A stretch of DNA of 64,000 nt from Candidatus Saccharimonadota bacterium (GTDB lineage: Bacteria > Patescibacteriota > Saccharimonadia > Saccharimonadales > SLHW01): contig JBJHDA010000001.1 in NCBI GenBank assembly GCA_050486305.1, positions 243,071-307,070 on the forward strand, read 5' to 3'. The translations under genes and the position numbers were made by a program. Every line of letters starts with the position of its first letter. Position 1 is the first letter of the stretch. Below the pieces are notes generated by a model that saw only the letters and a program-made list of their open reading frames with translations, was not told the DNA's origin and searched no databases. This document shows, piece after piece, positions 3,041 to 60,172 of this stretch.

Positions 3041-4618
3041 ATGAGTGCGAAAGAAGCAAACCAATTATCAGTCAAAGAACTAAGCCAGGATATTCGTGAC
3101 GCGATAGCTGACCTGAAGCGCCGTCCGGAGATTGAAGAAGTAGGTATTGTTACCCGGGTTGGTGACGGCATCGCTTGGATATACGGTCTAAGGAAATGTG
3201 GCTACAGCGAAATGATTGATATTGAAACCGAAGACGGTGGCACCGTGACCGCCTTTGCCCTCAACCTTGGCGATGACGAAATTGGCACAGTACTCCTCGG
3301 CGAGGAGATTGGTGTTCGGGCTGGTGCGACTGCTCGACTCACCGGCAAAATCCTTGAAGTCCCAGTTGGTCCTGAGCTGGTCGGACGGGTCGTTAACCCG
3401 CTTGGGCAGCCACTTGACGACAAGGGCGCGATTAAGACCAAGCAATCTAGTCCTGTTGAGCGACCTGCCCCGAGTGTGCTCGACCGAAAGAGTGTACACG
3501 AGCCACTGATGACCGGCCTGTTATCGATTGACGCTATGGTGCCGATCGGTCGTGGACAACGTGAGCTGATTATCGGTGACCGCCAAACTGGTAAGACCGC
3601 GGTTGCAGTCGATACGATGATTAACCAGCACGCGCAAGAAACCGGAGTCATTAATATTTATGTAGCAGTCGGCCAGAAACTCAGTAAGGTTGCCCGTTTG
3701 GTAGAGCGGCTTAAGCGCGAGGGGGTCATGGAGCAATCTATCATCGTGGCAACTTCGGCAGCTGACCCGGCGAGCTTACAGTACCTCGCCCCGTACGCTG
3801 GTTGTGCTATGGGCGAATACTTCCGGGATAACGGGCAACACGCGCTGATTATCTACGACGACTTATCTAAGCACGCGGCTGCGTACAGGCAGATGTCACT
3901 CCTCCTGCGTCGGCCTCCCGGACGCGAAGCGTATCCAGGGGATGTATTTTATCTGCACTCTCGTCTACTCGAACGTGCCGCAAAGCTGAACGATGACCTT
4001 GGTGCGGGGAGTCTCACTGCCCTGCCTATTATCGAGACGCAGGCTGGCGACATCAGTGCCTACATTCCAACCAACGTTATTTCTATTACGGATGGTCAGA
4101 TTTTTATGGAGACCAGTTTGTTCAATCAAGGTATTCGCCCGGCGGTTTCGGTCGGCTTGTCGGTATCACGTGTTGGAGGTGCTGCGCAGACCAAGGCGGT
4201 CAAGAGCGTTGCTGGTAACTTGCGCCTCAGCCTTGCACAGTTCCGCGAGCTGGCAGCCTTTGCTCAGTTCTCGAGCGACCTGGATGCTGATACAAAACAG
4301 CGAATCGAGCGTGGCCAGCGCCTCACCGAACTGCTCAAACAGCCACAATACAACCCGTTGAGCGTGTGGGAGCAGACCGCCCTTTTGCTTGCGGCGAACG
4401 AAGGTGCATTTGACACGGTAGCGATAGAAGATATACCGAACATAAAGGAAAGCCTGCTAAGCGAGCTCGCAAAACATCACGGGAAGCTGATAGCTACACT
4501 TGACGATGGCGACAAGCCAGACGACAAAATGAAGAAGACCATCCTTGACGTCGCACAGAAGATCGCTAAGTCATACGAGGCAGATGAGCAGGCAGACGAA
4601 GCGGAGGCAAAAAAATAG
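3041..4618 (+). CDS. atpA: F0F1 ATP synthase subunit alpha
   Basis: Walker A 'GDRQTGKT', 'IYDDLSKHA', and typical alpha-subunit sequence throughout. Confidence 0.97.
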
Positions 4619-8987: not shown

Positions 8988-9998
8988 ATGTCACTAGAAC
9001 AGCAAGGTCCATCTCCTGAAAGGATACATATGAAGGAATTGAAAACTGTCTGTCTTGCCCCGCAGGGGCTTGGCTTTGGCGAAGGCGTTATTTCTTATAA
9101 CAGTCGTGCCATCCACGATATACCAGAGGACGAACTGGAGCAGGTAGAAGCAATTATCAAAAGCCCAGAACAGATACTGACAGAAGTCGACAAGCAGGAC
9201 GGCGAATATCTGGATGATGATGGCTGCGGTGACGGTCGGGGTGTAACAAATGAATCTGGCGAAGTTGTCTACATAAAGCAAGGAAACAATGAGTTGAAAC
9301 GCTCGTTAAACCGCGCGAAATTATTCGGTGGCAGTGTAGCGATGACCGTAGCTGCCAAAATAGCGCAGTCAGGGGCAGAAAACCCCCGGCTTTACTCGCT
9401 TGCTGTAGAAAGCATGGATTTGCTAGACAGCCAGGGAGTTGACTACGGCGCACACACTGACGAGCATGCAGGCGCACGAAAAAGCGGTTGCGGTGCGATA
9501 GACAATGCGCCGACCATTCTTGCCAATATAGTAAATTATGAGCAGGAGATTGCGGACACGATACACGCGCTTGATCCGGCTGTTGACGCCGAACTGCTAA
9601 ACGAAGTACTTGAGAATTTCCGCGAATACTCTAGTGCTGACCAGGAAGGCTATAGCGGTGCAGATGTTATGGATGAAATCGACCGTCGGGAAAAAGTAAT
9701 AAAGCGTCTCGTTAGCGGGCACAATGAAATGTATATCGTCCTTAACGATGTCGAAAATTACACCGTCAACCAATTCACTGTTCGCGATGCCAGCCACGAG
9801 AGCATCCAAGTATTCGCAGTAGACTTATGGCGAGCGCAGAATATAAACAACCGTTTATTCGAAGACTCAGTCGAGCAGCAAAAAGCTATGCTTGGCCAGC
9901 TTATTTACACGCTTGGAACGGCCGCGACCCTAACGGACGGAACACTGCCGGTTTACCGTATTCAAAACATGAGACAACCGCAAAATATCTATAGCTAG
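8988..9998 (+). CDS. hypothetical protein with CxDxR and H..H..CGA motifs
   Basis: SD AAGGTG lies 6 nt upstream of the ATG. Motifs are 'DDDGCGDGRG' (nt 9225-9239) and 'GAHTDEHAGARKSGCGAIDN' (nt ~9447-9500). Confidence 0.7.
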   Translation: MSLEQQGPSPERIHMKELKTVCLAPQGLGFGEGVISYNSRAIHDIPEDELEQVEAIIKSPEQILTEVDKQDGEYLDDDGCGDGRGVTNESGEVVYIKQGNNELKRSLNRAKLFGGSVAMTVAAKIAQSGAENPRLYSLAVESMDLLDSQGVDYGAHTDEHAGARKSGCGAIDNAPTILANIVNYEQEIADTIHALDPAVDAELLNEVLENFREYSSADQEGYSGADVMDEIDRREKVIKRLVSGHNEMYIVLNDVENYTVNQFTVRDASHESIQVFAVDLWRAQNINNRLFEDSVEQQKAMLGQLIYTLGTAATLTDGTLPVYRIQNMRQPQNIYS

Positions 9999-10060: not shown

Positions 10061-13000
10061 TCATTGTTGTAATAGATCTTCTTGGAATTTTACTATGCCG
10101 TCATACGATTGTTCGTAGCTGCTGGTGTCTGGAAAATCAAGCTTCATAATGCGCTGCCATACCACATCTATCAATCGTTCTGTTTCTGCAATGTCTTCTT
10201 TAGTTGGAGTGTAGCTTCGAATCAGGTCTTTCTCGCTATCTGCTTGCAAGTACATCATCGCGCCCTCAATGTTTATATACGTTCCGAACCGTGGGCTGTT
10301 TTTTAGAAGCACTGCGTAGAACTTAAGCTGTGTTTTTTGCTTCCAGGCTTTGATCTGCAGGTTTTTGTCTTTCGTTTCAAAGCTGCGGAGCGGATTTCCA
10401 GTTTTGTAGTCGATAACGCGCAGGCTTTCCTTTGATAAAACGTCTATTCGGTCAAGCTTACCGCTGAGTCGTGCCTGCTTTAGTGCGATATCTTTAAATG
10501 ATTGCTCTGGCTTGCTGCCCTTTGGCATGGTCAGCCCAATATTTGTAAATAGGTTATCAAGCATTTGTTCGCCGTGTGGGATGTAACGTTCTGTTTCTTC
10601 TGCTGGCAAATACTCGCTTTTTAGTGCGGTTACGTAGGCTCGTTTTACTTTATCCAGGTTAAACGTGCCGGTATTCGTAAGCAGCTGCGCTTCTTGGAGT
10701 GCGGCGTGCATGGCAGTTCCGAATGCTAGACTGGTGGTCTTTGCCTCTGGTAAACGCAGCAAATTGCGTTCAACGAAATATGCCGGCCCGCCACTGGTGA
10801 TGTCTAGAAAGTTTAAAAGATGGGTAACGCTCAAGTTGTATGTCTCTAGCCTGCCGCGTAAGTATGCTTCCTGCCGGACGGATCCGACGCTAGGCCAGCG
10901 CAAATGGTCTTCTAGGATGGCGGTCTGCTCGGCAACCGATCCGGCTGGCATTTTTTCATAACTATCTATAGCGTTGCGGATGAGCGGTGTTGGCAGGACG
11001 TCCTCCCCGGCGTGATCATAATAGTAGCTTGTCGCGATGATGGAATGCTTTGCCCTAGTTACTGCCACGTACATAAGACGAGCGTAATCATCTGCGTCGT
11101 CGCCGTGCGGCTGGAGCGGTAGGTTTGCCGGTGCTTTTTTGCCGCCAGTGCGTGGCTGCCAGTTGTCTTCTATCGCATCGATGATATATGCCGTATCGAA
11201 CTCCAGGCCTTTGGCTTTGTGGACTGTTAGTAACTGAACGGCTTGCTCATTGATGACGAATGGCGACTCGTCCGTAATGACCTGTCCATTTTCGCGGTTT
11301 AGCTCTATAAAGCGCAGCAAATCTTCTAAGTCTGGCTTTTCGCTGCCTCGCGAAAAATCGGTTACACTCGTACGCAGCAACTGGATGGCCGATAGTCCGT
11401 GCAGATAGTCCTCTGTTTTGTCGGTTTTGTCAGATATAAAATACTGTTTGAGTGGGCTGGTATAGCCTTCCCCTTCTCTGAGGCCGAGGAAATGCTCTAT
11501 CAGAATAGGCAATGGCTGGCTGGAACTTTCCTGCGAAAGCCAAAGGAGCCAGTTGGCTATTGCCTGGATGGACTCGTTTTCGTGATTGCGTAGCGAATCC
11601 AGCCAGGCTGGCTCTTTAAAGTTCGCGGCAGCTAGCTGCCATAATTCGTCCGGCTTGATCTTCCAGGCCGGGTGGCGGATAAGTTGGCTGAGCGTGTAGT
11701 CAACCCGGGCAGTATCTCCGCTTCGTATCGCCAGCACCACATCTGCTAGGAGCGCTACCTGGTTTATTAGCTCGTGGTCTAAGATATTGCGTTGCTTTTC
11801 GTAACGGACTGGGACGCCTCGTTCAATTAGCAGGTGCGCGATTGACTGCAAGCTCCCGTGACCTCGGGCGATAACCGCAATGCTTTCATTTGCTTTATTG
11901 CCGTGGCGGGTTTTTATGTCTTGTGCCACTGCGCTTAACTGTTCTTCGCGTGAGGCATAGCTTTTATGGAGTATCTCGCCTTTTTGCTTGGGTGGGTTTT
12001 TAGCAACGAGGTCTTTCGTGATAGTATCGTCGCGCTTTACCAAGCGGTCTTCGGCGTGTTCGATTACCTTAGCTGCGGTATCCAGTACTTGCTGGCTGGA
12101 GCGGTAGTTTTCTGTTAAGACAATCTGCTTGGTTGCCGGATAGGTTCGTCGGAAACTGAGCATGTTGTTTAGCTCGGCACCATTAAACTTATAAATAGAT
12201 TGGTCATCATCGCCCACTACCATAAGATTCGGCTTGCCCTCTGCCGTGTGATGATCGGATACGAGGTGTGCCAAGCGGAGTTGTGCGGCGTTCGTATCCT
12301 GGAACTCGTCAATCAGTACATACAGAAAGCGCTCTTGCACTTCTGCCCGTAAGTCAGCGCGTTGCTCAAGCTGGCTTATTACTTCTACCAGCATGTCTGA
12401 ATAGTCATAGTAGCCGCGGGCGTGCAGTTCGTCCCGGTATGATTGGTATACGTCTGCTAGGGATTTCCACCAGGCGTTTCGTTTTCGCTCTGTGTGCATA
12501 CCTTTCTCGCCAGCGACGGATTGTATCCAGCGGCGCTTCCAGGCACTGGTGTTGGTTGATTTATTTGTGCCTTCGTCTTTAGCGATCGCTTCATCCAGGC
12601 TTTCTTTTATTGCATCGTCTAATGGTAAGAGCGGCATGCTGTCGCGGCTAAGGCCTTGTTCTGGCAGGTCTTGGATTGCTACTTGCAAGTCTGGTAATTT
12701 TTTTGCACTGAGCGTCGTAGATAATATTTCGATAAGCTGGGGCTCGATAAGGTCTATGTAAACTTCGTTTAGCTGGATGATGGCGTGCAACTTCTCTGGT
12801 GTTAGGCCGGCTTCTTTCGTTAACTTTAGCCCGGAGCGCACGTCTTTTACGCCTGTAAACTGTCCGGCAAATTTCATAGCAAGCGGGTTATCAAGTGGCA
12901 GCTTGGTCAATATATCCTGGATTATTTCCAGCTGTACGGCATCCGGCGCGGTTGAAAGCCGAGCGCCATTCCAGAAATACTCCGGGTACATGTTCATGAT

Positions 13001-14041: not shown

Positions 14042-14339
14042 GTGGCCTCCCCTTAACTCTTATTTTTGTTACCTTATATTATCGTGCCGGTGGCTGAGCT
14101 GTCCGTGAGATTAGGCACAATTTTATTTGATAAATGTCACACAAAACAAAATGTACTTGCGTTTATGCGAAATTAGTCGCATAATTCGCAACAGAAATAT
14201 TTGGGTGGCGGTACATTAAGCTAATAACTTCGTTTCATGGAAGTCACTTGAAACATTCCCGGTAATTTGGTCGCTTAGGGGATGCGTAGACAGTAGCGAA
14301 ACCGTTCCGTGATTGAGTCTGTTTGTAAGGAGATTCAAC

Positions 14340-17300
14340 ATGGGTACGGTTCAACTCAGTCAATTTAAGAATATCTTAGGGCGCTCACGCAACATCTTGC
14401 TAGCGTTCGTTTTTATCTTCACCCAGCTTTTCGTCCCGCTGAGTTTTGCGATTAACGTCGCTGAGGCTGGTTCGGACGCAATATCTACCTCGACTCATCA
14501 GGGACAGCTAAAGGATGAGGATACCGGTAACTTGCTTGGATATACTTCCGGCAATGTTACAACCTATAAGGAGCTTGACTCTATTAACTTTAGATTTACC
14601 CTAGACAGCGACGATGAGGCCTCTGGAAGAATGAGGGTCAGTTTCGCTGGCGACATAACAACTGGTCAGCAGTGTGTATTTTTTCAGCAAGCTTTTTCAC
14701 TAGGTACTCATGACAATTCAGCACCAGCTGTTGAAAGTATTTCCGGCGTAGAACCCAGCGTAACGACAGTCGGTACACCGATTAAGGATGGGAATAGGTG
14801 GGCACAGGTATTGGATGTTGACTTCAGCGGCGGCTCGGGTATAGCAGTAGTAAACTATCACTTAACTCTCACAGATGAAGCTGGCAATTGTGGTGGTTCT
14901 TCAACCCACACAAGCTTAGACAATGCAAAACCTGAAGATTTTGATGACCCTGATGACTATACAGACGACTTTAAAACTATTGGTACTCAGTCAGTATCAA
15001 TACCAGCAAAAGACATACTGATACTCCCGTCAATTACCATTATTAAATCGGTTGAAAGCGGTGACGCAGAGCCGCATGAATTTAGTTTTGCTGTGTCCCC
15101 AGAGATTAATGGGCAATCTAGCTTTTCAATTTCGGAGGGTCAAAGTTCAGTGCTCATAGACAATGTTGACCCTGGGTTCCCAGATAATCCAATTGAATAT
15201 ACGTTCACAGAATCAGGACCAGAGGGTTATGTTTTCGATGGAGGATCTGGAGTTAACTGCTCTGTCGTTGATGCTTCAATTGGTACTCCTGATGGACAAA
15301 TGCTAGTTTCCGGACTTGAGGCTAGCTCAAATGAAAACCATGTAAAAAACGCAGAATGTACTTTTAGTAATGTAGAACAAACCGGCTCAATAAAGATTGA
15401 AAAAGCTGCCGATGGCGACCAGGAACAAGACTTTAAATTTACAGCTACTGGCGGCGGTGTCGATGACTTTACTCTAACTGGCACTGACAACAAGACATTT
15501 TCTGGACTTTCAGCTGGCGAATACACATTTACTGAAGAGGATGTTACTGAATTTGGCTGGGATTTGACAGCGATTAGTTGTGAGGACGCAGACGGCACAA
15601 CGTGGGATGTCGACACGCGAACTGCGACAGTTGATCTTGCGGCGGGTCAGGATGTGACCTGTAAGTTTACTAACGTGGAGCGTGGTGAAATCGTAGTCAC
15701 GAAAGAAACTAACCCGTCCGATAGTGAAACGGAATTTGAGATAACTGCATCAACTAATGACGGGACAATTTTTGATGATGCTACGCAAACTATAAAGGAC
15801 GATGGAAGCACTGTAACCTACGGAGTAACGCCAGGTACTTACGATGTGACTGAGAATCTGCCGGAGGGCTGGCGATTGGCAGAAAACGGTTGCTTAGGCG
15901 TCGAGGTGGCTGCTGGTCAGTCAGTTGACTGTACGATTAAGAATGAGCGGCTGGCACAGCTTACAATCATCAAGGAAGCTATCCCAGCAAGCAATCAAGT
16001 ATTTGAATTTTTCACTGACAACCTTTCTCCAGCTGAATTTACATTAGTTGATGATAAGGAAGATGATGACAGTAATATAAAAGTATTTGATAACTTAAAC
16101 CCAGGCGAGATGTATAAGGTTACAGAACAGTCAACTCCAGGATGGCAGCTGACTGACCTGGACTGTAGCTCGACGGCTACGGTTGATAAAGATGCGCGCC
16201 AAGTTACGTATGCCCCTGCACCTGGTGATGATGTGACATGTACGTTTACAAATACGAAGCTTGGTTCAATCTCCGGCACGAAGTTTGAGGCCAATGCTGA
16301 CGGATCAACAAGCAATACATTAGCTGAGTGGACAATTAAACTATTGCTAGAAGGTGCTGAGGTAGACGAGACCGAGACCGATGTTAACGGCAACTACACA
16401 TTTGAAGGCCTTCTCCCGGGCAACTACACGATAATCGAAGTATTAAAAGATGACTGGACACAAATATTTGAGCCAGACGAAGTAGATCTGTCTGCTGGTG
16501 AAAACAGCACGGATAATGATTTCGGCAACTTTGAGAACGTGACCATCAGCGGCTATAAGTGGAATGACCTTGATGGTAACGGTGAATGGAATACCGAAAC
16601 AGAGCCTGGACTAGAAAACTGGGCAATCCACCTCTACCAGAGCGATGACAATACTGCGGAAGGAAATTACGAACCCTTCGCTGATACAACTACGGATGAA
16701 GACGGTTTTTACAGTTTTGACGATATCAGCCCCCTTCCTTCCCGCTTCTACAAGATTTGCGAGGTGCAGCAAACAGGCTGGAAGCAAACCTATCCTAATA
16801 CAGATGACGATTGCCATGAAGTAGAAGTGCTACAATCTGGCACAGATATAACTGATAAAAACTTTGGTAACCAGGGTCGCGGAACCATCCAGGTGTTTAA
16901 GAATGTAGACGAAAACGGCGATGGCACGATTGACAACCAAGGCGCAGACGACTGGGCCTGGGATATAGACGGCGGGGGCAACCTCCAAACCGGCGGACTA
17001 GCTAAAGAGGTAGCCGCGGGAGACTACACAGTTAGCGAACAGATGAAAGACGGCTACCACTTCACCTCAGTTGAATGTACCGTGAACGGAAATGAACTCA
17101 CTGTAGCCCAGACTGAATCATTTGACGTGACAGTTGGTCCGGGAGAAAGCGTGGTTTGTACTTTCGTAAATACTCGTGACACTGGCCAAATAAGGTTAGT
17201 AAAACACCTTGAGCCGAAAAATGACAAAGGGCGGTTTAATCTACACATTGAAGGAGAAGACTTTAGTCATACCAGATGGCTTGCCACACATGGAAGCTCA

Positions 17301-18854
17301 ACTGGCTTTCAGACGGTCGCAACTGGTAAATATACTTTAAGTGAAACCGGAAGTAAGCTATTTAAGACCAATCTCGATGAATACGACACAACGTACAAGT
17401 GTTACCGTGCTGGATTTTGGTGGCCGATACTTGTTGCTAGCGGTGAAGGAGCCGTTATCGAAGATGTTCCGGTGAAAAAGGATTGGAGAGTTACCTGTAC
17501 ATTTACCAACAAGCGAAAACCACAAATCACGGTGATAAAAAATGCCGAGCCAAAGAGCCTGGAGAGATTCTTGTTCTCGATACGTCAGGAAAAGCAGAAC
17601 GACAAACCAGTTGAATTTCCTGGTGTATTTAACGGAGAGCAACCGTTTGATCCGCTCTACTTTGGCGAGCAGTGGTGGTCAAAGCCTATCAGCATCTTTT
17701 CGCTTCGTCACACCCACTCAAGCCACAAGACGAACAGCAATCAGCATACAGAAGTGCTGAAGCCAGGGACCTATAAGATAACCGAGATGAAGAAAAAAGG
17801 CTGGTTCTTAGAAAATATCGAATGCGATGGCATTGACTATACTATTGAGGACAACGCTGTTTATCTGACTGTAGGCTATGGCGACAAAGTTAGCTGTACG
17901 TTTAAGAATGAAAAGGCTGGAGAAGTTGTAGTTACGAAATACGAAGATCTTGAACGTACTGGCTCTAGAAGCGAGACAGACAAGCTACTTGAGGACTGGA
18001 CAATTACTCTTACCTGCAGTGACCAGTATGGCGAAGATTGCGATGACGCAGAGTTGAAGACCGATGAAAACGGACAAGCTGTTTTTGAAAACGTACGGCC
18101 GAACCGCCATTACGAGGTTGGGGAAGTACAGCAGGAAGGCTGGCAATTAATCGGCATTACTTGCTGGACTAATTCTCAGAAATTCCGGTTACTTGGGCCT
18201 AATCCGAAGATATACTACGAGCAAGGAAGCATATCCGTTATGCCTGGTCAAACTGTTCATTGTGAAATTGGAAATGCGCGTGATTTGATTATTGAGCTTG
18301 AAAAAGAGAATGATGCGGATGATGTTCGGTCAATCGGAGATATCGTTACCTATACGTTGACGGTATCGATACCAGAAACTAGCGGCATATCGTACAACAC
18401 GACCGTTACTGACTTGCCACCGGAGAACTTTGAGTACATAGAGGGTAGCTGGACCGTTGATAGCAATAACCTGAATGTAGCTACGGAAGTTGGGGCAGGC
18501 CCGACTTATGCCTCACCTGGCGACTGGAATCTCGGAACACTCTTCCCTGGCGATGAAGTTGTCCTGACATATCAGGCTCGAATTCTAGAAGAGGTAACAC
18601 CGGGCACCTACCCTGACATTGCTTACGCGAGTGGATTTAATACTGACGTGGGCGGAGACATCGTGTACTCTAATGTGCACTTTGCTGATGAGCCATTTGA
18701 TGGGTCGGAAGTTACAGTTGCGGACGAGCGACCAGAGCCGAGAGTTTTGGCCAAAACTGGAGCGCCAGTCACTTGGCAATATATAGCAGTACCGGTATTA
18801 CTGATTGGACTCGCTATCTCACTTGTTCGACGCGAAACGAAAGGAGCGCTCTAA
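14340..18854 (+). CDS. giant cell-surface protein: signal peptide, ~10 Ig/prealbumin-like (Cna-B / SdrD-B / SpaA-like) repeats, DUF11-like domain, LAXTG sorting signal
   Basis: AAGGAG lies 7 nt before ATG 14340, and the N-terminal signal peptide ends ...AINVAEA. A recurrent ~100-aa unit starts 'G.I.V.K' and ends 'V.C.F.N'. 'YKWNDLDGNGEWN' resembles SdrD-B. The C-terminus is LAKTG (18747-18761), then a hydrophobic helix, then RRETK. Confidence 0.9.
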   Translation: MGTVQLSQFKNILGRSRNILLAFVFIFTQLFVPLSFAINVAEAGSDAISTSTHQGQLKDEDTGNLLGYTSGNVTTYKELDSINFRFTLDSDDEASGRMRVSFAGDITTGQQCVFFQQAFSLGTHDNSAPAVESISGVEPSVTTVGTPIKDGNRWAQVLDVDFSGGSGIAVVNYHLTLTDEAGNCGGSSTHTSLDNAKPEDFDDPDDYTDDFKTIGTQSVSIPAKDILILPSITIIKSVESGDAEPHEFSFAVSPEINGQSSFSISEGQSSVLIDNVDPGFPDNPIEYTFTESGPEGYVFDGGSGVNCSVVDASIGTPDGQMLVSGLEASSNENHVKNAECTFSNVEQTGSIKIEKAADGDQEQDFKFTATGGGVDDFTLTGTDNKTFSGLSAGEYTFTEEDVTEFGWDLTAISCEDADGTTWDVDTRTATVDLAAGQDVTCKFTNVERGEIVVTKETNPSDSETEFEITASTNDGTIFDDATQTIKDDGSTVTYGVTPGTYDVTENLPEGWRLAENGCLGVEVAAGQSVDCTIKNERLAQLTIIKEAIPASNQVFEFFTDNLSPAEFTLVDDKEDDDSNIKVFDNLNPGEMYKVTEQSTPGWQLTDLDCSSTATVDKDARQVTYAPAPGDDVTCTFTNTKLGSISGTKFEANADGSTSNTLAEWTIKLLLEGAEVDETETDVNGNYTFEGLLPGNYTIIEVLKDDWTQIFEPDEVDLSAGENSTDNDFGNFENVTISGYKWNDLDGNGEWNTETEPGLENWAIHLYQSDDNTAEGNYEPFADTTTDEDGFYSFDDISPLPSRFYKICEVQQTGWKQTYPNTDDDCHEVEVLQSGTDITDKNFGNQGRGTIQVFKNVDENGDGTIDNQGADDWAWDIDGGGNLQTGGLAKEVAAGDYTVSEQMKDGYHFTSVECTVNGNELTVAQTESFDVTVGPGESVVCTFVNTRDTGQIRLVKHLEPKNDKGRFNLHIEGEDFSHTRWLATHGSSTGFQTVATGKYTLSETGSKLFKTNLDEYDTTYKCYRAGFWWPILVASGEGAVIEDVPVKKDWRVTCTFTNKRKPQITVIKNAEPKSLERFLFSIRQEKQNDKPVEFPGVFNGEQPFDPLYFGEQWWSKPISIFSLRHTHSSHKTNSNQHTEVLKPGTYKITEMKKKGWFLENIECDGIDYTIEDNAVYLTVGYGDKVSCTFKNEKAGEVVVTKYEDLERTGSRSETDKLLEDWTITLTCSDQYGEDCDDAELKTDENGQAVFENVRPNRHYEVGEVQQEGWQLIGITCWTNSQKFRLLGPNPKIYYEQGSISVMPGQTVHCEIGNARDLIIELEKENDADDVRSIGDIVTYTLTVSIPETSGISYNTTVTDLPPENFEYIEGSWTVDSNNLNVATEVGAGPTYASPGDWNLGTLFPGDEVVLTYQARILEEVTPGTYPDIAYASGFNTDVGGDIVYSNVHFADEPFDGSEVTVADERPEPRVLAKTGAPVTWQYIAVPVLLIGLAISLVRRETKGAL

Positions 18855-19528
18855 TGAAACGCCTACTACTATCACTTGCAATTTTACTTGCTCTACCACT
18901 TGTATTTTCTAGCTTGGCTCATGCCGACTTTTCGAGATGGAAGGTAGAAATGTCTGACCCAACAACATCAGACCAGCTACGCAGCTTTAATATTGAGTTC
19001 ACTGCCCTGACAGTCGAGGACACGACAATAACCGTCCGGCTCATAGAGAACGGCACGCAGATTGGCGACGATAGAGTAACGCCAAGCGGCGGAGGTTCTG
19101 GCGTATTCCACGTAACCGTACCTGAAGACGGTGTGTATGCGTACCACTTGCGCTCTACCAGCAACTCAGAAACTAGAAATACAGAAACCAGAAACGTCAG
19201 AGTGTCTACCGTTGATGACGAGACGACAATAGAAGTTGACCCAGAGCTAACACCAGAGGAAGAAGCGCAATTAATACAAGCGCAAACTGGCCAGCCAGTA
19301 GCCGGAACGCAGGTTGGTGATGGTGAAGCCACAGACGCAGACGGCGAAATTACCGACGAGGCAGCCGTAACTGATGAGGACGAGAATGGTGATGTACTTG
19401 GTGTTGACGATGACGAAGACGACGAAGACGATGGAACCGGTGCAATCTTACGCAACATCCTTATCGTGATTGCGTTACTCGGGGTTATGTACTATATCTT
19501 CTTCCGCAAACGAGGAAACGAAAGCTAA
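18854..19528 (+). CDS. secreted, C-terminally membrane-anchored acidic protein (224 aa)
   Basis: Its ATG overlaps the upstream TAA as TAATG. Signal peptide is MKRLLLSLAILLALPLVFSSLAHA. It has a D/E-rich tract and a C-terminal TM helix followed by FRKRGNES. Confidence 0.75.
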   Translation: MKRLLLSLAILLALPLVFSSLAHADFSRWKVEMSDPTTSDQLRSFNIEFTALTVEDTTITVRLIENGTQIGDDRVTPSGGGSGVFHVTVPEDGVYAYHLRSTSNSETRNTETRNVRVSTVDDETTIEVDPELTPEEEAQLIQAQTGQPVAGTQVGDGEATDADGEITDEAAVTDEDENGDVLGVDDDEDDEDDGTGAILRNILIVIALLGVMYYIFFRKRGNES

Positions 19529-22070: not shown

Positions 22071-22297
22071 GTATATATTATATAATATTACTGGTACTTA
22101 TACAATGTTTATGGGGTGTGATTTGGTAGCAAGTGACTCGTCTTCCCTGTTATAATCTGGTACAATCTAGTGCGTGTTAGAAGCTTTTGAGTGTATACAT
22201 ACACTTAGCAGTGGTATACAAAAAAATCGAAAAAGGATTTTCGATTTTTAGAGGAGGATGTTTCGTAAGGTTGGTAGAGTTGCCGAGCAAATTCATA

Positions 22298-22325
22298 TTG
22301 TCGGCGACTCAGGTAACCTTACAAT
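22298..22325 (+). promoter_or_regulatory. candidate sigma70-type promoter for tRNA-Gln
   Basis: TTGTCG (22298-22303), a 16-nt spacer, then TACAAT (22320-22325), 13 nt upstream of the tRNA 5' end. Confidence 0.35.
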
Positions 22326-22338
22326 TACAATCAGACGA

Positions 22339-22413
22339 TGGGGTGTGGCCAAGTGGTAAGGCACATGGTTTTGGTCCATGCATTCGGGGGTTCGAATCCC
22401 TCCACCCCAGCCA
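22339..22413 (+). tRNA. tRNA-Gln (anticodon UUG), CCA encoded
   Basis: TGGGGTG acceptor arm pairs with CACCCCA. D-loop is GCCAAGTGGTAAGGC. Anticodon stem CATGG/CCATG carries loop TTTTGGT. T-arm is GGGGGTTCGAATCCCTC and the 3' end is GCCA. Close to the E. coli tRNA-Gln layout. Confidence 0.93.
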
Positions 22414-22421
22414 AACAAAGA

Positions 22422-22450
22422 GTCGGGCTTCGTGCCCGGCTTTTTGTTTG
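22422..22450 (+). terminator. rho-independent terminator after tRNA-Gln
   Basis: GTCGGGC-TTCG-TGCCCGGC hairpin followed by TTTTTGTTTGTTTG. Confidence 0.6.
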
Positions 22451-22573
22451 TTTGTGGTTGGGGTCCGCACCCTCGAATGTGCTCGCTGAAAGCGAGCATG
22501 CATTCGTTGGGCTCGGGCATCAAGCTCGTGCACAAGAGTTTACTCGGAGCACGAGCGCAGCATGCACTATGTC

Positions 22574-22591
22574 ATCCCTCCACCCCAGCCA
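22574..22591 (+). repeat. 18-nt direct copy of the tRNA-Gln 3' end (ATCCCTCCACCCCAGCCA)
   Basis: Identical to 22396-22413. The sequence upstream of the copy cannot form a T-arm, so it is not a second tRNA. Confidence 0.85.
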
Positions 22592-22747
22592 GAGCAATTG
22601 GCCTCTTCCCTGCTTAAAAGTGAAACTCATCACCTCGGAAGGTTCTACCATTTGGTCTACGTTGAGCTAGCTTGCTCACTTTTCTCATAGCGCTATATAT
22701 TTGAATTATCTGATAAGATATTCCATAAGAAGACGAAAGGCTATAAC

Positions 22748-23272
22748 ATGAGCACAGAAAATCTATTAGATAGCGACAAAGATGCTGTATTTGGGGTAAG
22801 ATCACCTAGCGCTGTGATACGAGAGACCGTTGTAGCAGCTATATTCGAACCAGATTCTAAAAAATATTTGTGTCAGTATTGGAAAGATTACGATGGGCTT
22901 ACTTGCCTGCTTTCTGGCGGCATTGAACCGCAAGAGAGTAGGCTAAGCGCTCTTAAGAGGGAGATAGCAGAAGAAACAGGTTATACGGACTTCGAAATAG
23001 TAGGAGTGCTTGGTGGTAGCATAAAAAGTTACTATAAAAAGCGGACAACCGGTGAAAATTTTGTGAAGCATATAACAGCTTACTTGGTAGTTCTTAACTC
23101 ATTGATACAAAAACCATTAAATCGTGAAAAAGACGAGAAGTTTGAGAATTTCCTGAAGTCGCCCGAGGAGATTATTGAGATGATGGAGCAATACGAGCAA
23201 AAGACAGGGTCCCCACTTGGTGACCACAAAGAGATATTATGTCGTGCGCAAAAATACCTGAACGTAAACTGA
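22748..23272 (+). CDS. Nudix hydrolase
   Basis: Complete Nudix box 'GGIEPQESRLSALKREIAEETGY' (G-x5-E-x7-REUxEExGU). Confidence 0.88.
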   Translation: MSTENLLDSDKDAVFGVRSPSAVIRETVVAAIFEPDSKKYLCQYWKDYDGLTCLLSGGIEPQESRLSALKREIAEETGYTDFEIVGVLGGSIKSYYKKRTTGENFVKHITAYLVVLNSLIQKPLNREKDEKFENFLKSPEEIIEMMEQYEQKTGSPLGDHKEILCRAQKYLNVN

Positions 23273-26527: not shown

Positions 26528-27283
26528 ATGCTAAAAAAACTGATACCGGTAGTGGCGATCGTACTCGTGTTAGGAGCGGTTTTTACAGTGATGCCATCGA
26601 GGGCTGAAGGAAGCACAAGCACTGTTGATTATACCGGGCAAGGATTTGATAACGGAAATTTAGAAACGGTAAAATGTGATCCGTTTGACACTGGTCAAGC
26701 ATCAAGCGAAGGGCTGACGGAAGAAACCGGCTACCTGCACTGGATTTTAGCTGGCTCTCAGGCTGATTCTGCTACGCTCACCGGACCTTGGGGTACGATT
26801 GACATGGTGAAGGCCGGTGGAGAGCAAGGTCAAGGCGCATTTCATGGAGCGACAGAATACCACGCTCTTGAAGCATTAATCGGTAACGTGTACGCAACGC
26901 ATGATGGAGATGGTGCAAACCCACAGTTGACTGTAAGTAACGGGTGCCCTGGCGAACCAGTTGAACCTCCCGAACCACCAGAGCCACCTGAACCGCCGGA
27001 ACCTCCCGAACCACCAGAGCCACCCGAACCTCCTGAGCCACCACTACCAGTAGGAGGCCCGATTAGAGAGCCGGAGCAGCCACGTCCCCAAGGGGAGCCA
27101 GTTGTAGTTGCTGAGCGGGAGCAAGAGGGAGAGGTTCTCGGAGCACAAGTAATTGCTCCAGAAGGTCCGGTTGACGCAGGAATGGGAGTTGCCGGAATAG
27201 CAATAAGCTCTTTATTTGGCCTAGGTAATTCCGTAGCGGCAATTGGTTATGGTACTTCCAGGCTTCGTAAGAAAGAATTTTAA
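26528..27283 (+). CDS. secreted protein with (PEP)n repeat stalk and C-terminal hydrophobic/basic anchor
   Basis: Signal peptide MLKKLIPVVAIVLVLGAVFTVMPSRAEG, then 'EPVEPPEPPEPPEPPEPPEPPEPPEPPEPPLP'. The C-terminus is a hydrophobic segment followed by RLRKKEF. Confidence 0.75.
   Translation: MLKKLIPVVAIVLVLGAVFTVMPSRAEGSTSTVDYTGQGFDNGNLETVKCDPFDTGQASSEGLTEETGYLHWILAGSQADSATLTGPWGTIDMVKAGGEQGQGAFHGATEYHALEALIGNVYATHDGDGANPQLTVSNGCPGEPVEPPEPPEPPEPPEPPEPPEPPEPPEPPLPVGGPIREPEQPRPQGEPVVVAEREQEGEVLGAQVIAPEGPVDAGMGVAGIAISSLFGLGNSVAAIGYGTSRLRKKEF
26963..27043 (+). repeat. coding tandem repeat (9-nt PEP codon unit, with a 26-nt exact copy at 36-nt period)
   Basis: GAACCTCCCGAACCACCAGAGCCACC occurs at 26963-26988 and again at 26999-27024. 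Confidence 0.8.
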
Positions 27284-27292
27284 AGGACATGA

Positions 27293-28240
27293 GTGGTGGC
27301 AACAAAGAAAGCAGCCACTAAAAAGAAGGCCAGCAAGCGGCAACCACCCAAAAGCAAGTTGCCGCTTGATCGTGTCGGTAAAAAAACAAGTTCTAGTCGA
27401 AGCACGAAAGCAAAGCAAGCACCCAGCGTAAAGAAAAAGGCAGCAAAAGCTAGGCCTACAAAACAGGTCTCTCGAAAAAAACCAGCGCGTACAAGGTATA
27501 AAAAGAGGCAGCTAAGTATACGGCTCGGCCCAAACGTAACATTAGAAATCACGCTAAAGAATTCTAGGTCTAAGGCGAAAAAATCTAAGTCTCGGCGGTT
27601 AAGTAAAAAGCAATTGCAGCTAGCACATAAACGACGCCAAATTTCAGCAGTCGCGTTCGTAGTATTTGGCGTTATCGGCACCGTTTATTTTGCTAGCAAC
27701 CTGTTCCAGTCTGAATCGCCTCCCCCAGTTGTGTATTCGCCACCGGCACCAGCCGAAATCGCACAAACAGAACTAGAGAGGGCCGCTGGGCTGCCAGCCT
27801 CTGAACCGGTGCATTTGCAAATTCCGGATGCCGATATTGACACATCGCTTATAACCGTAGGCCGTAACAGTGACGGCACTATGGAGGTGCCGGAATCATT
27901 CGAAGTAGCTGGGTGGTATAAATACGGCCCGACTCCGGGAGAAATCGGGCCGTCAATCATAGTTGGTCATGTTGATAGTATTGCGGGTCCGGCCGTGTTC
28001 TGGCAGCTTAGCCAACTAAAGCCTGGTCAGCTGATTGAGATAAAAAGAACAGATGGTACTTTGGTTACGTTTGCCGTGACCGACAGCAAGCAGTTTGAGC
28101 AAGATAACTTTCCTACAGATGAGGTGTACGGCAATATTGACTATGCGGGCCTGCGACTTATAACTTGCGGCGGATGGTTTGACCGCGATGTCGGCCGGTA
28201 TAGTCATAACACGGTGGTGTATGCCAGGCTGCAAGAGTAG
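27293..28240 (+). CDS. sortase (class E/F-like) with ~110-aa polybasic N-terminal tail and one TM helix
   Basis: 'IIVGHVDS' (catalytic His), 'LRLITCGG' (TLxTC-type Cys), and 'RYSHNTVVYARL' (Arg). The N-terminus is K/R-rich up to the TM helix 'ISAVAFVVFGVIGTVYFA'. GTG start is 10 nt after the previous stop. Confidence 0.85.
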   Translation: MVATKKAATKKKASKRQPPKSKLPLDRVGKKTSSSRSTKAKQAPSVKKKAAKARPTKQVSRKKPARTRYKKRQLSIRLGPNVTLEITLKNSRSKAKKSKSRRLSKKQLQLAHKRRQISAVAFVVFGVIGTVYFASNLFQSESPPPVVYSPPAPAEIAQTELERAAGLPASEPVHLQIPDADIDTSLITVGRNSDGTMEVPESFEVAGWYKYGPTPGEIGPSIIVGHVDSIAGPAVFWQLSQLKPGQLIEIKRTDGTLVTFAVTDSKQFEQDNFPTDEVYGNIDYAGLRLITCGGWFDRDVGRYSHNTVVYARLQE

Positions 28241-57646: not shown

Positions 57647-60172
57647 ATGAAACCGTTTTACAGCCAAACGACAGATGAATCGTTGCGTCAACTTAATGTG
57701 AGTAAAGCCGGCTTATCCTCAGAAGAAGCCGGTCAGCGGCTAAAAAAGTACGGGCCGAACACCCTTAAAGTAAAGGGCGAACCGTTGTGGCGTAAGCTCA
57801 TCGAACCGTTTCGAAGTATTTTTATGCTAATCCTGTTTCTTGCTGCTGGTATTAGCTATATTACCGGCGAAAATCTCGATGCAGGCATCATACTTGTCAT
57901 TATCTCCATAACCGCAGTAATTTATTACATACAGCGTTTTTCTACTGAACGGGTACTGAAATCACTAAAAAAATATGAAGCTGCCGATGTTGAAGTATGG
58001 CGTGACGGGAAGTCGCAACAAGTCGGAACGGAGCTGCTAGTTCCCGGTGATATTATCCGGCTGTACGAAGGCCAGAAAGTCCCTGCTGACGCTCGGGTTA
58101 TCGAAGCTGATAATGTCCGTTGTGATGAAGCGCTTCTGACCGGTGAGTCAGCGCCAGTAAGCAAGCACGCCGATGCGCTTGACGGCGAAAAAGCGATCTA
58201 TGAGCAAAACAACATTGTTTTCTCTGGTTCGTTTTTAGTATCGGGAGAAATCACTGCACTTGTTGTCGGTACTGGAAACGATACTGAGTTTGGCAAGATC
58301 GCAGTACTATCAAGCAACCGTGAAACAAGCTCCCCTGTCCAACAAAAAATCGACAAGCTCATCGAGCAGATTGTTGGCGTCGTCGCAATATTGGCTGCGG
58401 CACTCATGATTCTTAGTATCTATAGAGGCATCGACTTATCTGAGGCGTTCCATTTCGTGATTGCACTATCTGTTTCAGTAATCCCTGAAGGACTGCCGGT
58501 TGCTATATCTGTGGTGCTTGTATTTGGCATGCGGCGTATGGCTCGCCGTAAAGCACTCGTACGAAACATGCCGGCGATAGAAAATATCGGACTCATCACT
58601 ACTATCGCCAGCGACAAGACGGGTACACTCACGAAAAACCAACTCGAGGTAGAAAGTGTCTGGCGTGTGGATGGCGAAAACAAACCTGACGAAACAGCGT
58701 CATATCTGACACTTAGCTCTAACCAGAAAGAAGGCGTGTCGCATGATCCGCTTGACACCGCGTTCACACTGTACGCTCAAAAACACTCCCCTGATATTTC
58801 AGGGTACAAGCATGTTCTCTCTTTACCGTTTGACCAAGTGCTCGCAATGAGCGGCAATGTCTGGAAAAAAGGTAAAGAGTATGCCGTATATATAAAGGGC
58901 TCGCCGGAAAAACTTTTACAGAACGCGTCTTTATCAAACGAGCAAAAGAAAAATGCCGAAGCGCAGCTACATGAGCTTACGACGCAAGGGCTTCGTGTTA
59001 TCGCTCTCGGCCGAGTTAATGGTAAACAGGTCAAAGAATTGGCCGAGCTCGAAAAGGAAAAGATTGAGTTCCTCGCCCTACTCGCCGTTGCCGATGAGCT
59101 TCGGCCGGAGGCAAAAGCGTCAATAAAAGCTGCCCAATCTGCCGGAGTGACCGTACGGATGATTACTGGCGATCATTTTGAAACTGCCTATAGTATCGGA
59201 AAGCAGCTTGGACTGTGCGAGAGCCGAGACCAGGTATTTGATAGCCGTAGAATAAAAGATATGACGGACGCTGAGTTATCTGAAACGGTTGCAAATGCAC
59301 GAGTGTTTTCTCGTGTGATTCCGGAGCATAAGCACCGGATCCTCACCGTTTTAAAAGAGCACGACATTACCGCGATGACGGGTGATGGCGTTAATGACGT
59401 TCCGGCATTATCGAATGCTCATATCGGTTTGGCTATGGGTAGTGGCTCGCAGATTGCTCAGGACGCTGGCGATATCATCTTGCTTGATAATAATTTCAAG
59501 AGCATCATTACTGCCCTAGAAGAAGGACGGAAAATATTCGACAATATCCGCCGGATGTTGTTCTTACTCCTTACTACAAGTGCCGGCGAGGCACTTACAT
59601 TTTTAAGCGCGCTGTTGCTTGGCATGCCGCCCCCTGTGCTTGCCGTACAAATTCTGTGGATTAATCTCGTGACTGATACTGCAATGGTGATTCCGCTTGG
59701 GTTGGAGCCGGCCGAGAGCGATATAATGAAGCGAAAGCCGCGAAAACCAAATAAGCCGATTCTCGGCAAAGTAGTATTAAGCCGTATGATTCTTATCGCA
59801 ATAGTTATGGCAGCCGTAACGCTTGGTCTTTTTGCGTACTTTAACCAGGCTTATGACGAAGCATATGCACGTACCATCGCTTTTAGTGCTTTAGTAGTGA
59901 TGCAGTGGGCAGATGCATTCAACGCCCGAAGCTTGTGGCAATCAATATTCATTCGAATTAAGACGATGAATAAGGCATTTTATGTCGGGCTGAGCATTGC
60001 TGTGACCGTTCACATGTTAACGCTGTTCGGGCCGTTCCAAGGCCTCTTGTCTCTTGAGGTTATCTCTGTTGAGCACTTCATTGTTACGACGCTTATTGCA
60101 GTGACGCCTGTGATAGTGGCAGGAGAAATCCACAAACTATTTATCAAGAGGCTGGATCCTGATTTTCGTTAG
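57647..60172 (+). CDS. cation-translocating P-type ATPase (type II, Ca2+-ATPase-like), copy 1
   Basis: 'TGES', 'PEGLPVAISV', 'ASDKTGTLT', 'MITGDH' and 'TGDGVNDVPAL' motifs. 841 aa. Confidence 0.95.
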   Translation: MKPFYSQTTDESLRQLNVSKAGLSSEEAGQRLKKYGPNTLKVKGEPLWRKLIEPFRSIFMLILFLAAGISYITGENLDAGIILVIISITAVIYYIQRFSTERVLKSLKKYEAADVEVWRDGKSQQVGTELLVPGDIIRLYEGQKVPADARVIEADNVRCDEALLTGESAPVSKHADALDGEKAIYEQNNIVFSGSFLVSGEITALVVGTGNDTEFGKIAVLSSNRETSSPVQQKIDKLIEQIVGVVAILAAALMILSIYRGIDLSEAFHFVIALSVSVIPEGLPVAISVVLVFGMRRMARRKALVRNMPAIENIGLITTIASDKTGTLTKNQLEVESVWRVDGENKPDETASYLTLSSNQKEGVSHDPLDTAFTLYAQKHSPDISGYKHVLSLPFDQVLAMSGNVWKKGKEYAVYIKGSPEKLLQNASLSNEQKKNAEAQLHELTTQGLRVIALGRVNGKQVKELAELEKEKIEFLALLAVADELRPEAKASIKAAQSAGVTVRMITGDHFETAYSIGKQLGLCESRDQVFDSRRIKDMTDAELSETVANARVFSRVIPEHKHRILTVLKEHDITAMTGDGVNDVPALSNAHIGLAMGSGSQIAQDAGDIILLDNNFKSIITALEEGRKIFDNIRRMLFLLLTTSAGEALTFLSALLLGMPPPVLAVQILWINLVTDTAMVIPLGLEPAESDIMKRKPRKPNKPILGKVVLSRMILIAIVMAAVTLGLFAYFNQAYDEAYARTIAFSALVVMQWADAFNARSLWQSIFIRIKTMNKAFYVGLSIAVTVHMLTLFGPFQGLLSLEVISVEHFIVTTLIAVTPVIVAGEIHKLFIKRLDPDFR

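Follow-up and report, generated by a model that had tools for sequence, protein, structure and literature searches.

The 64,000-nt stretch analysed here, called the window throughout (positions 243,071 to 307,070 of contig JBJHDA010000001.1 from Candidatus Saccharimonadota bacterium), contains a single tRNA gene according to ARAGORN and Rfam, a tRNA-Gln(UUG), and the DNA directly behind this gene has an unusual composition. Judged by its layout, the segment 22414-22591 reads as one gene-less, cassette-like unit, which consists of a terminator and, behind it, a degenerate tRNA-Gln copy colinear with the gene. Comparison with related loci shows that such units come and go as entire blocks, with the repeated 3' end of the tRNA as their limits. 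To the reading that the unit is a cassette gained and lost by recombination at this 3' end we give about an even chance. An earlier reading made from the letters of this DNA (the sequence-only reading) had offered three options for the spacer between the two repeats, namely a decayed remnant of a deleted element, a miniature non-autonomous element, or the left end of a downstream islet. The second fits best and pointed in the right direction, although a gene-less pseudo-tRNA cassette, member of a recurrent class, is the more accurate description. The tRNA gene and the components of the unit are as follows.

22339-22413, plus strand: functional tRNA-Gln(UUG), called by ARAGORN and Rfam (64.1 bits).
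22396-22413, plus strand: first copy of the repeat, the tRNA's own last 18 nt.
22412-22450, plus strand: intrinsic terminator with a 17-bp stem that begins at the CCA end and a T run; first component of the unit.
22455-22464, plus strand: TGGTTGGGGT, TGG and then a sequence resembling the 5' strand of the acceptor stem, part of a predicted 10-bp closing stem.
22465-22516, plus strand: hairpin A, 20 pairs, delimited by folding and by self-match to the tRNA.
22512-22573, plus strand: ~60-nt insert where the T loop would be, holding GCTCGTGC-N17-GCACGAGC at 22524-22556.
22574-22591, plus strand: second copy of the repeat, tRNA positions 59-76 including CCA; distal boundary of the unit.

The repeat, ATCCCTCCACCCCAGCCA, corresponds to tRNA positions 59-76, that is, the last two bases of the T loop, the 3' strands of the T stem and the acceptor stem, the discriminator base and CCA. 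It occurs exactly at the two places listed and nowhere else in the 64 kb, and no further copy with up to three mismatches is present in the whole window, where 0.02 matches are expected by chance. The exact 18-nt copy of the tRNA-Gln 3' end, on which the sequence-only reading had built its case for an att-like recombination footprint, is thus real. What holds of the footprint is a displaced or duplicated fragment of the recombination type; a random scar does not describe it. An independent Logan assembly (L001; related loci and contigs are designated by L numbers) is identical to the window over 22071-22747, and relatives of the Zincin_1 gene flanking the locus come nearly all from metagenome-assembled genomes of Saccharibacteria or Patescibacteria.

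From 5' to 3', the unit runs through the terminator, TGG with the acceptor-like strand, a replaced D region, a long hairpin standing for the anticodon loop, the variable loop with the 5' strand of the T stem, the T-loop insert and, finally, the intact positions 59-76. This pseudo-tRNA-Gln layout is deduced from sequence, folding, self-matches of the tRNA and comparison with locus L116. TGGTTGGGGT is complementary, with one G.U pair, to ACCCCAGCCA, which lies in the 18-nt copy and in the tRNA alike. The tip of hairpin A, GCTCGCT-GAA-AGCGAGC at 22481-22497 (7 bp with a GAA loop), replaces the anticodon loop, and the 3' strand of this hairpin repeats tRNA positions ~39-53 in sense orientation, with CATGCATTCG at 22497-22506 (positions 39-48) and then TTGGG; according to the L116 comparison the sense copy spans positions ~39-57. 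The predicted fold of 22414-22591 reaches -90.1 kcal/mol (z = -7.6 against shuffled sequence). Both spacer hairpins that had been noticed before are present, shifted by 1-2 nt, and so is the tRNA terminator, whereas the pairing of TGGTTGGGGT with ACCCCAGCCA, the CATGCATTCG copy, the exceptional fold and the recurrence at other tRNA genes and in other genomes had been missed. Nothing that we found suggests that the unit is of use to the cell, and the functional tRNA retains its promoter, complete sequence and terminator.

The gain and loss of whole blocks is most apparent at loci sharing the same tRNA. The tRNA-Gln is 100% identical in the window, in L086/L087 and in L116, and this identical 75-nt gene is followed by no unit in L086/L087, by one in the window and by two in tandem in L116. 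The content behind the tRNA thus varies among relatives, which was the comparison called for by the sequence-only reading, and the uniform content in all relatives that would have refuted that reading was not observed; the downstream flanks differ among these loci, so that none of them represents an exact empty site. In L116 (GCA_003563675.1), where tRNA-Gln occupies 1575-1649 of the minus strand, unit 1 has 149 nt followed by an exact 18-mer (18/18) and unit 2 has 166 nt followed by a 17/18 copy. Unit 2 and the unit of the window share 86% column identity overall and are nearly colinear over the first ~105 nt. On the upstream side L116 is orthologous to the window, the divergent upstream gene being homologous in both (31% identity, E = 3e-21), and the genes downstream of the unit are not common to the two. 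In L086/L087 the tRNA is followed by other DNA with a foreign T-arm fragment. Except for the L116 ortholog, no further copy of the unit is present in the window or in the loci compared.

In the sequences compared, the distal boundary is precise and follows the resident tRNA. Locus L084, found by a promoter-anchored scan of metagenome contigs (three other matches were irrelevant), has the same promoter as the window and a tRNA-Gln that differs from that of the window at nine positions. Its 18-nt copy starts at the same tRNA position and matches L084's own tRNA, and the interior of its unit is unalignable with that of the window, suggesting independent events with a precise boundary.

We surveyed 48 non-redundant tRNA loci, mostly of Patescibacteria and most of them fetched for an unrelated protein, for copies of the tRNA's own last 14 nt with up to two mismatches. 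Such a copy starts 122-178 nt downstream at 10 of the 48 loci, and upstream at none of the 48. After removal of the window and of two loci fetched because of it, 7 of 45 are positive. The positive tRNAs are of the Gln, Gly, Phe, Ala and Thr types, and the units at the 10 loci measure 137-192 nt. As a control, 67 tRNAs of phage tRNA arrays were examined in the same way, and only reciprocal matches between adjacent full tRNA genes were obtained, the clearest being a paralogous tRNA-Gln pair in L100. At the positive loci the identity sets in, without exception, within the T loop or directly beside it, with the copies starting at positions ranging from 53 to 64. Among the cases read, nearly every unit opens with a terminator directly after the copy of the tRNA end (L062 is without a terminator hairpin), which is exactly what an element rebuilding the 3' end of a tRNA would need. 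In six units the T loop and stem are also present as an unambiguous antisense copy, exact over 12-15 nt. Arrays of 2-3 units are found in L092, which has three downstream copies, and in L116. Units of different tRNAs show no similarity beyond their tRNA-derived parts, the exceptions being L004/L092, window/L116 unit 2, L060 Gln/Thr and a weak match between L029 and L062 (z = 5). The size range at 10 tRNA loci and the tandem arrays contradict the earlier suggestion that the spacer is the decayed remnant of a deletion.

These observations also have to be set against a rather improbable but substantial alternative, namely that the tRNA and its terminator were duplicated in tandem and then decayed, with copy number changing by unequal crossing-over or slippage and the 3' ends kept alike by gene conversion. 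The order of the unit, a whole colinear tRNA and then a terminator, agrees with such an origin, and terminators compared by eye across units and genomes seem to be related (AAGAAAGA.. and A.CAAAGAG..). Two perfect 102-nt tandem repeats opening with the 5' end of the tRNA are present in L029, the upstream pseudo-tRNA of L116 retains positions 1-14, 22-30 and 38-51, and no integrase was found nearby. Random decay, however, does not predict that loops are systematically swapped for hairpins while stems are kept. Nor does duplication followed by decay predict the antisense T-loop copies in six units, the same sharp boundary between positions 58 and 59 in lineages with unrelated interiors, or the tight size across five tRNA types, and streamlined genomes would be expected to shed useless duplicates.

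Under the favoured reading, that of a cassette gained and lost at the tRNA 3' end, blocks would move by recombination between copies of the tRNA 3' segment, and the likeliest agent would be a small tyrosine recombinase provided in trans by a phage and acting on a site that extends from the T loop to the 3' end. The unit would in effect be a tRNA-derived attP plus the terminator needed for tRNA function. Once two copies are present, ordinary recombination between the repeats could also grow or shrink the array. With the 18-mer and the 3' end of the related tRNA-Gln(CUG) as queries, IMG/VR yielded three contigs in which a tyrosine recombinase of ~280 aa lies beside a tRNA-Gln-derived attP and a terminator. 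The recombinase-attP regions are located as follows.

L103, 743-1860.
L106, ~1100-2926.
L107, 8393-9384.

Pairwise identity among the three recombinases is 32-40%, and that of L103 matches PF00589. The attP of L103 is identical to the tRNA of the window over positions 43-76 (34 nt), and a 15-nt antisense copy of the left part of its core directly follows the stop codon of the integrase. The contigs are probably phages of Saccharibacteria-like hosts, and the matches show this exact tRNA to be a target of integrating elements whose identity blocks start near position 40, as in the unit. Judged by their size, the three recombinases have no separate arm-binding domain; their attP is a degenerate whole tRNA-Gln. 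Separately, the IMG/VR jumbo-phage contigs L097, L098, L100, L104 and L105 carry, within large tRNA arrays, a long suppressor tRNA(CUA), labelled 'Pyl' by ARAGORN, with a 3' end identical to the 18-mer of the window.

Several results weigh against movement by recombination at the tRNA end. Within the unit, the sense copy of positions 39-57 is split from 59-76 by the insert, and a simple attR would look otherwise. Tandem duplication with unequal crossing-over predicts the same pattern of blocks. Pairing is kept in the terminator and in hairpin A, which hints at a selection on structure that would not be expected of a pure scar. A Pfam scan of 30 open reading frames (ORFs) of the window, which are housekeeping-type genes, revealed no recombinase or integrase domain, and no member of the L103 integrase family was found when related loci totalling 1.3 Mb were searched; in the window, tblastn gave no match to the integrases of L103 and L107 either. 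The three phage attP regions do not resemble the interior of the unit. When strings from this interior were sought in viral contigs, GCTCGCTGAAAGCGAGC recovered unrelated terminators only and GCACGAGCGCAGCATGCAC nothing. Finally, we observed no circular or excised form of the unit and no true empty site sharing its downstream flank.

The conservation of structure bears on another alternative, which we regard as distinctly unlikely: the unit could encode a functional tRNA-like non-coding RNA (ncRNA), derived from the neighbouring tRNA and co-evolving with it, with the 18-mer being part of the RNA. Between the window and unit 2 of L116, the terminator keeps 15/15 pairs, one of them by a compensatory change, and hairpin A keeps 20/20 with one compensatory and two wobble changes, including U.G to C-G, which preserve pairing on the plus strand only. 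Compensatory changes likewise preserve the hairpins of the homologous L004 and L092 units; the tRNAs of these two loci are identical, yet the DNA upstream of them is unalignable. With two sequences in each comparison, this conservation of helices is at most suggestive. The very stable fold would suit an RNA as well, and so would the presence, at six places, of a structured module with much covariation in pseudo-tRNAs (the I-motif, described below), four of which are likely co-transcribed with the tRNA. On the other hand, the closing stem keeps 8/10 pairs in L116 unit 2, where the 18-mer has also decayed, suggesting that its pairing is probably a relic and not selected. The distal hairpin is not conserved, and the T-loop insert that holds it is unalignable with the corresponding part of L116 unit 2, so that this insert is the fast-changing part of the unit. 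Furthermore, the unit is absent from L086 despite an identical tRNA, interiors are unrelated between lineages, and the stability of the fold is in good part a by-product of inverted tRNA-derived arms. The unit sits behind a strong terminator, and the promoter scan found no promoter-like site for it. ARAGORN detects no second tRNA and no transfer-messenger RNA (tmRNA) in the window. In Rfam 15, only the tRNA passes the gathering score in the window, and a permissive search of 22100-22800 gave as best other match SorX, which scores 22.3 bits where 46.6 are required and overlaps the tRNA and the terminator; for the region of the window and for L007, gathering and permissive thresholds alike returned tRNAs only. 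The spacer is thus without a match to an Rfam family.

The I-motif is a conserved three-hairpin module of ~95 nt, which starts with U|GARAAYWGCCnGnGGCWGUUYGYAA and ends in a hairpin of the GGCCUGCC-GAA-GGUAGGUC type. Copies are located in L004 (558-656, minus strand), L092 (1324-1422 and 1620-1695, both minus), L007 (20190-20286, plus, and 18323-18421, minus) and L010 (4103-4196, minus), and the module is also present in L116, ~85-175 nt upstream of its tRNA-Gln. Its position is exact: it occurs either after T54, in the T loop, or after G18/19, in the D loop, of pseudo-tRNA fragments found beside functional tRNA-Gln and tRNA-Met genes. Compensatory changes occur in 15/31 of its predicted pairs. 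It has no Rfam family, and its consensus gave no match in viral contigs. A covariance model of the I-motif found no copy in the window, indicating that the T-loop insert of the window is a different sequence.

Pseudo-tRNA fragments take other forms at three further loci. Upstream of the tRNA-Phe of L029 (9294-9369), the tandem pair of 102-nt repeats spans ~9079-9293, and each repeat consists of tRNA-Phe positions 1-13, a hairpin inserted in the D loop and positions 19-32; on its downstream side, this tRNA-Phe is followed by a unit ending in a copy of the tRNA's own 3' end. In L060 (~3789-3854 and 10703-10771), a long hairpin, GGGGTCGNGAGTACTTAG ... CTTAGTAACTCGTGACC, is conserved, with a middle that is variable yet paired, and occupies the T-loop position of the pseudo-tRNA units behind two tRNAs (Thr and Gln) of one genome. 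In L010 (3918-4200, minus strand), a functional tRNA-Gln(CUG) is enclosed in a 12-nt inverted repeat, TTTTATTACATG / CATGTAATAAAA, outside of which another tRNA-Gln allele is present in two halves: upstream its positions 1-17, together with an I-motif, and downstream its positions 49-76. The arrangement gives the impression of a complete tRNA cassette placed within an older tRNA gene.

A further possibility is that the second 18-mer belongs, as attL-side repeat, to a larger downstream island, with the genes for NUDIX, a 988-aa kinase fusion, sortase and others as its content. The downstream genes are not common to the window and the orthologous L116, as the upstream gene is, and GC content falls to 0.42 at 23-24 kb, both of which would be consistent with an island. 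No integrase is present among the ORFs scanned, and searches for the 18-mer (up to three mismatches), a 12-nt core (up to one) and the T arm found no third copy in the window, which extends 41 kb downstream and 22 kb upstream. Because a third repeat copy is lacking, we hold this origin to be highly improbable, and the proposal that the spacer is the left end of the downstream islet is not supported.

On the other side of the gene, the region 22112-22338 is a mosaic, with the following parts.

22112-22120, plus strand: TGGGGTGTG, equal to tRNA positions 1-9, a possible displaced 5' fragment and the longest upstream sense match, with its start at tRNA position 1.
22142-22170, plus strand: conserved promoter module CTTCCCTGTTATAATCTGGTACAATC, common to the tRNA-Gln loci of L002 and L084.
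22226-22338, plus strand: leader with a second promoter-like site, TTGTCG-16-TACAAT (22298-22325), from the promoter scan.

The TGGGGTGTG copy lies 218 nt upstream of the tRNA and, with only 9 nt, is weak alone. Partial copies of tRNA 5' ends are found upstream in L029, L092, L060, L010, L007 and L116, and those of L092, L060, L029, L010 and L116 are analogous to that of the window but longer. The distance from CTTCCCTGTTATAATCTGGTACAATC to the tRNA is 35-50 nt in L002/L084 versus 170-180 nt in the window, a difference of ~135 nt. This extra DNA includes a hairpin at ~22205-22240 that resembles a bidirectional terminator and, as read by eye from the sequences, is homologous to the leader preceding the L116 pseudo-tRNA.

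Integrase-targeted tRNA genes reportedly show a regenerated tRNA and a displaced fragment, as Reiter in 1989 and Williams in 2002 are said to have described. Compared with islands and prophages integrated in tRNA genes, the unit shares the direct repeat of a tRNA 3' segment starting from the T loop or T stem, the restored tRNA 3' end with a supplied terminator, tandem arrays at one tRNA, 5'-side fragments, and phage-like contigs with a matching attP. It differs in its size (137-192 bp, whereas islands have 2-200 kb), in having neither integrase nor cargo, and in an interior that is itself tRNA-derived. The tRNA and displaced fragment are in direct orientation; the 160 nt between the repeats contain no integrase. 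As for a free attP form, L103 has an integrase and the 34-nt match, its arms being unlike the unit, and a circular unit was not found. The work on the Islander pipeline relies on the same principle of regenerated gene and displaced fragment and reports tandem arrays, 5' fragments and attP sites in the T stem (PMC4383910). Displaced tRNA fragments, such arrays and T-stem attP sites together are an established mark of integrases at work, which speaks for the favoured reading. Island candidates below 2 kb are rejected by that pipeline (PMC4383910), and the dropping of such short candidates by island finders would explain why mini-units went unnoticed; we found no earlier description of such tRNA-derived mini-units in the literature.

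Other known systems resemble the unit in part. Cis-mobilizable elements (CIMEs) of streptococcal integrative and conjugative elements, and integrative mobile elements exploiting Xer (IMEX), have att-type sites and no recombinase of their own; IMEX borrow the host Xer, and CIMEs are kb-sized, with mobilization shown experimentally. The unit shares with them the att-type sites without an own recombinase, presumed mobilization in trans and tandem accretion. Unlike the kb-sized and experimentally mobilized CIMEs, it is about as large as a bare attP. Integrons combine IntI and an adjacent attI with attC sites composed of R''-L''...L'-R' boxes and a GTTRRRY core of 7 nt. Arrays of short units at one site and a unit of 60-190 nt recall integron cassettes, and the imperfect palindrome at the unit end, an antisense and then a sense arm with the 3' arm repeating the recombination site, recalls attC. 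By contrast, there is no IntI, attI or box consensus, and the shared segment amounts to 18-38 nt of tRNA versus a 7-nt core. Read by eye, the locus has no paired RYYYAAC...GTTRRRY core, only a GTTRRRY (22506-22512) without inverse partner. Like tRNA pseudogenes from tandem duplication, the unit is adjacent to the parent tRNA and follows its order and orientation; unlike them, it has structured hairpins for loops, an exact 3' end, a defined size and gain and loss in blocks. Closure of a larger structured RNA by an acceptor-like stem is also seen in the tRNA-like domain of tmRNA and in the Y-RNA-like YrlA RNAs. Unlike these, the unit has a fully paired CCA, lacks a canonical T loop and an associated protein gene, and is matched by neither Rfam nor ARAGORN.

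Additional candidates were rejected. A retroviral-type primer-binding site, which 18 nt equal to positions 59-76 might recall, is not compatible with the copies of other loci, which start at positions 53-64 and follow the genomic sequence beyond the tRNA end and not the mature CCA end. T-box, retron, bridge-RNA/IS110, omega-RNA/TnpB and homing guides of CRISPR-associated transposons were dismissed because no cognate protein gene is adjacent (neighbouring genes, Pfam) and the guide geometry does not fit. In a transposon of the miniature inverted-repeat type, the inverted ends would not differ with each tRNA and follow the sequence of the neighbouring one, as they do here, and no dispersed copies exist in the window or the loci. 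A second functional tRNA or tmRNA disagrees with the negative ARAGORN result and with the hairpin at the position of the anticodon loop.

Taken more broadly, the unit of the window may be one member of an undescribed class in Patescibacteria, a possible but doubtful generalization that we put forward tentatively. Members would be gene-less, tRNA-built units of ~140-190 bp that insert, excise and form arrays on both sides of tRNA genes. Each would comprise a terminator and a pseudo-tRNA with structured inserts in its loops, among them the I-motif, which is confined to D and T loops of pseudo-tRNAs. Such units would then represent the smallest known integrative elements, as naked tRNA-like attP sites moved in trans, or alternatively an RNA family derived from tRNA precursors. 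If site-specific movement is true, an integrative element could be reduced to a site and a terminator, and tRNA genes of very small genomes would be active recombination platforms missed by island software. If the hairpins are functional RNA, they would represent a new tRNA-derived family in a phylum with few known ncRNAs. If the units are neither mobile nor RNA, they would be ordinary scars, functionally unimportant. In genomes of the candidate phyla radiation, tRNA 3' fragments should not be taken as island ends before a check for mini-units, and tRNA flanks lend themselves as markers of variation at the strain level. Both the I-motif and the broader class merit a dedicated survey.

Elsewhere in the window, two tandem paralogous genes for 841-aa proteins (57647-60172 and 60272-62797) share ~72-75% DNA identity at a spacing of 2625 nt; the first encodes a P-type cation ATPase according to Pfam, and the second presumably does likewise, given the repeat. 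A repetitive surface-type protein of 1513 aa is encoded at 14313-19528. In the region 26528-28240, a gene for a 251-aa protein with (EPP)n 9-nt repeats (26954-27052) adjoins a sortase gene (27293-28240), and the 1513-aa and 251-aa proteins are probably substrates of this sortase.

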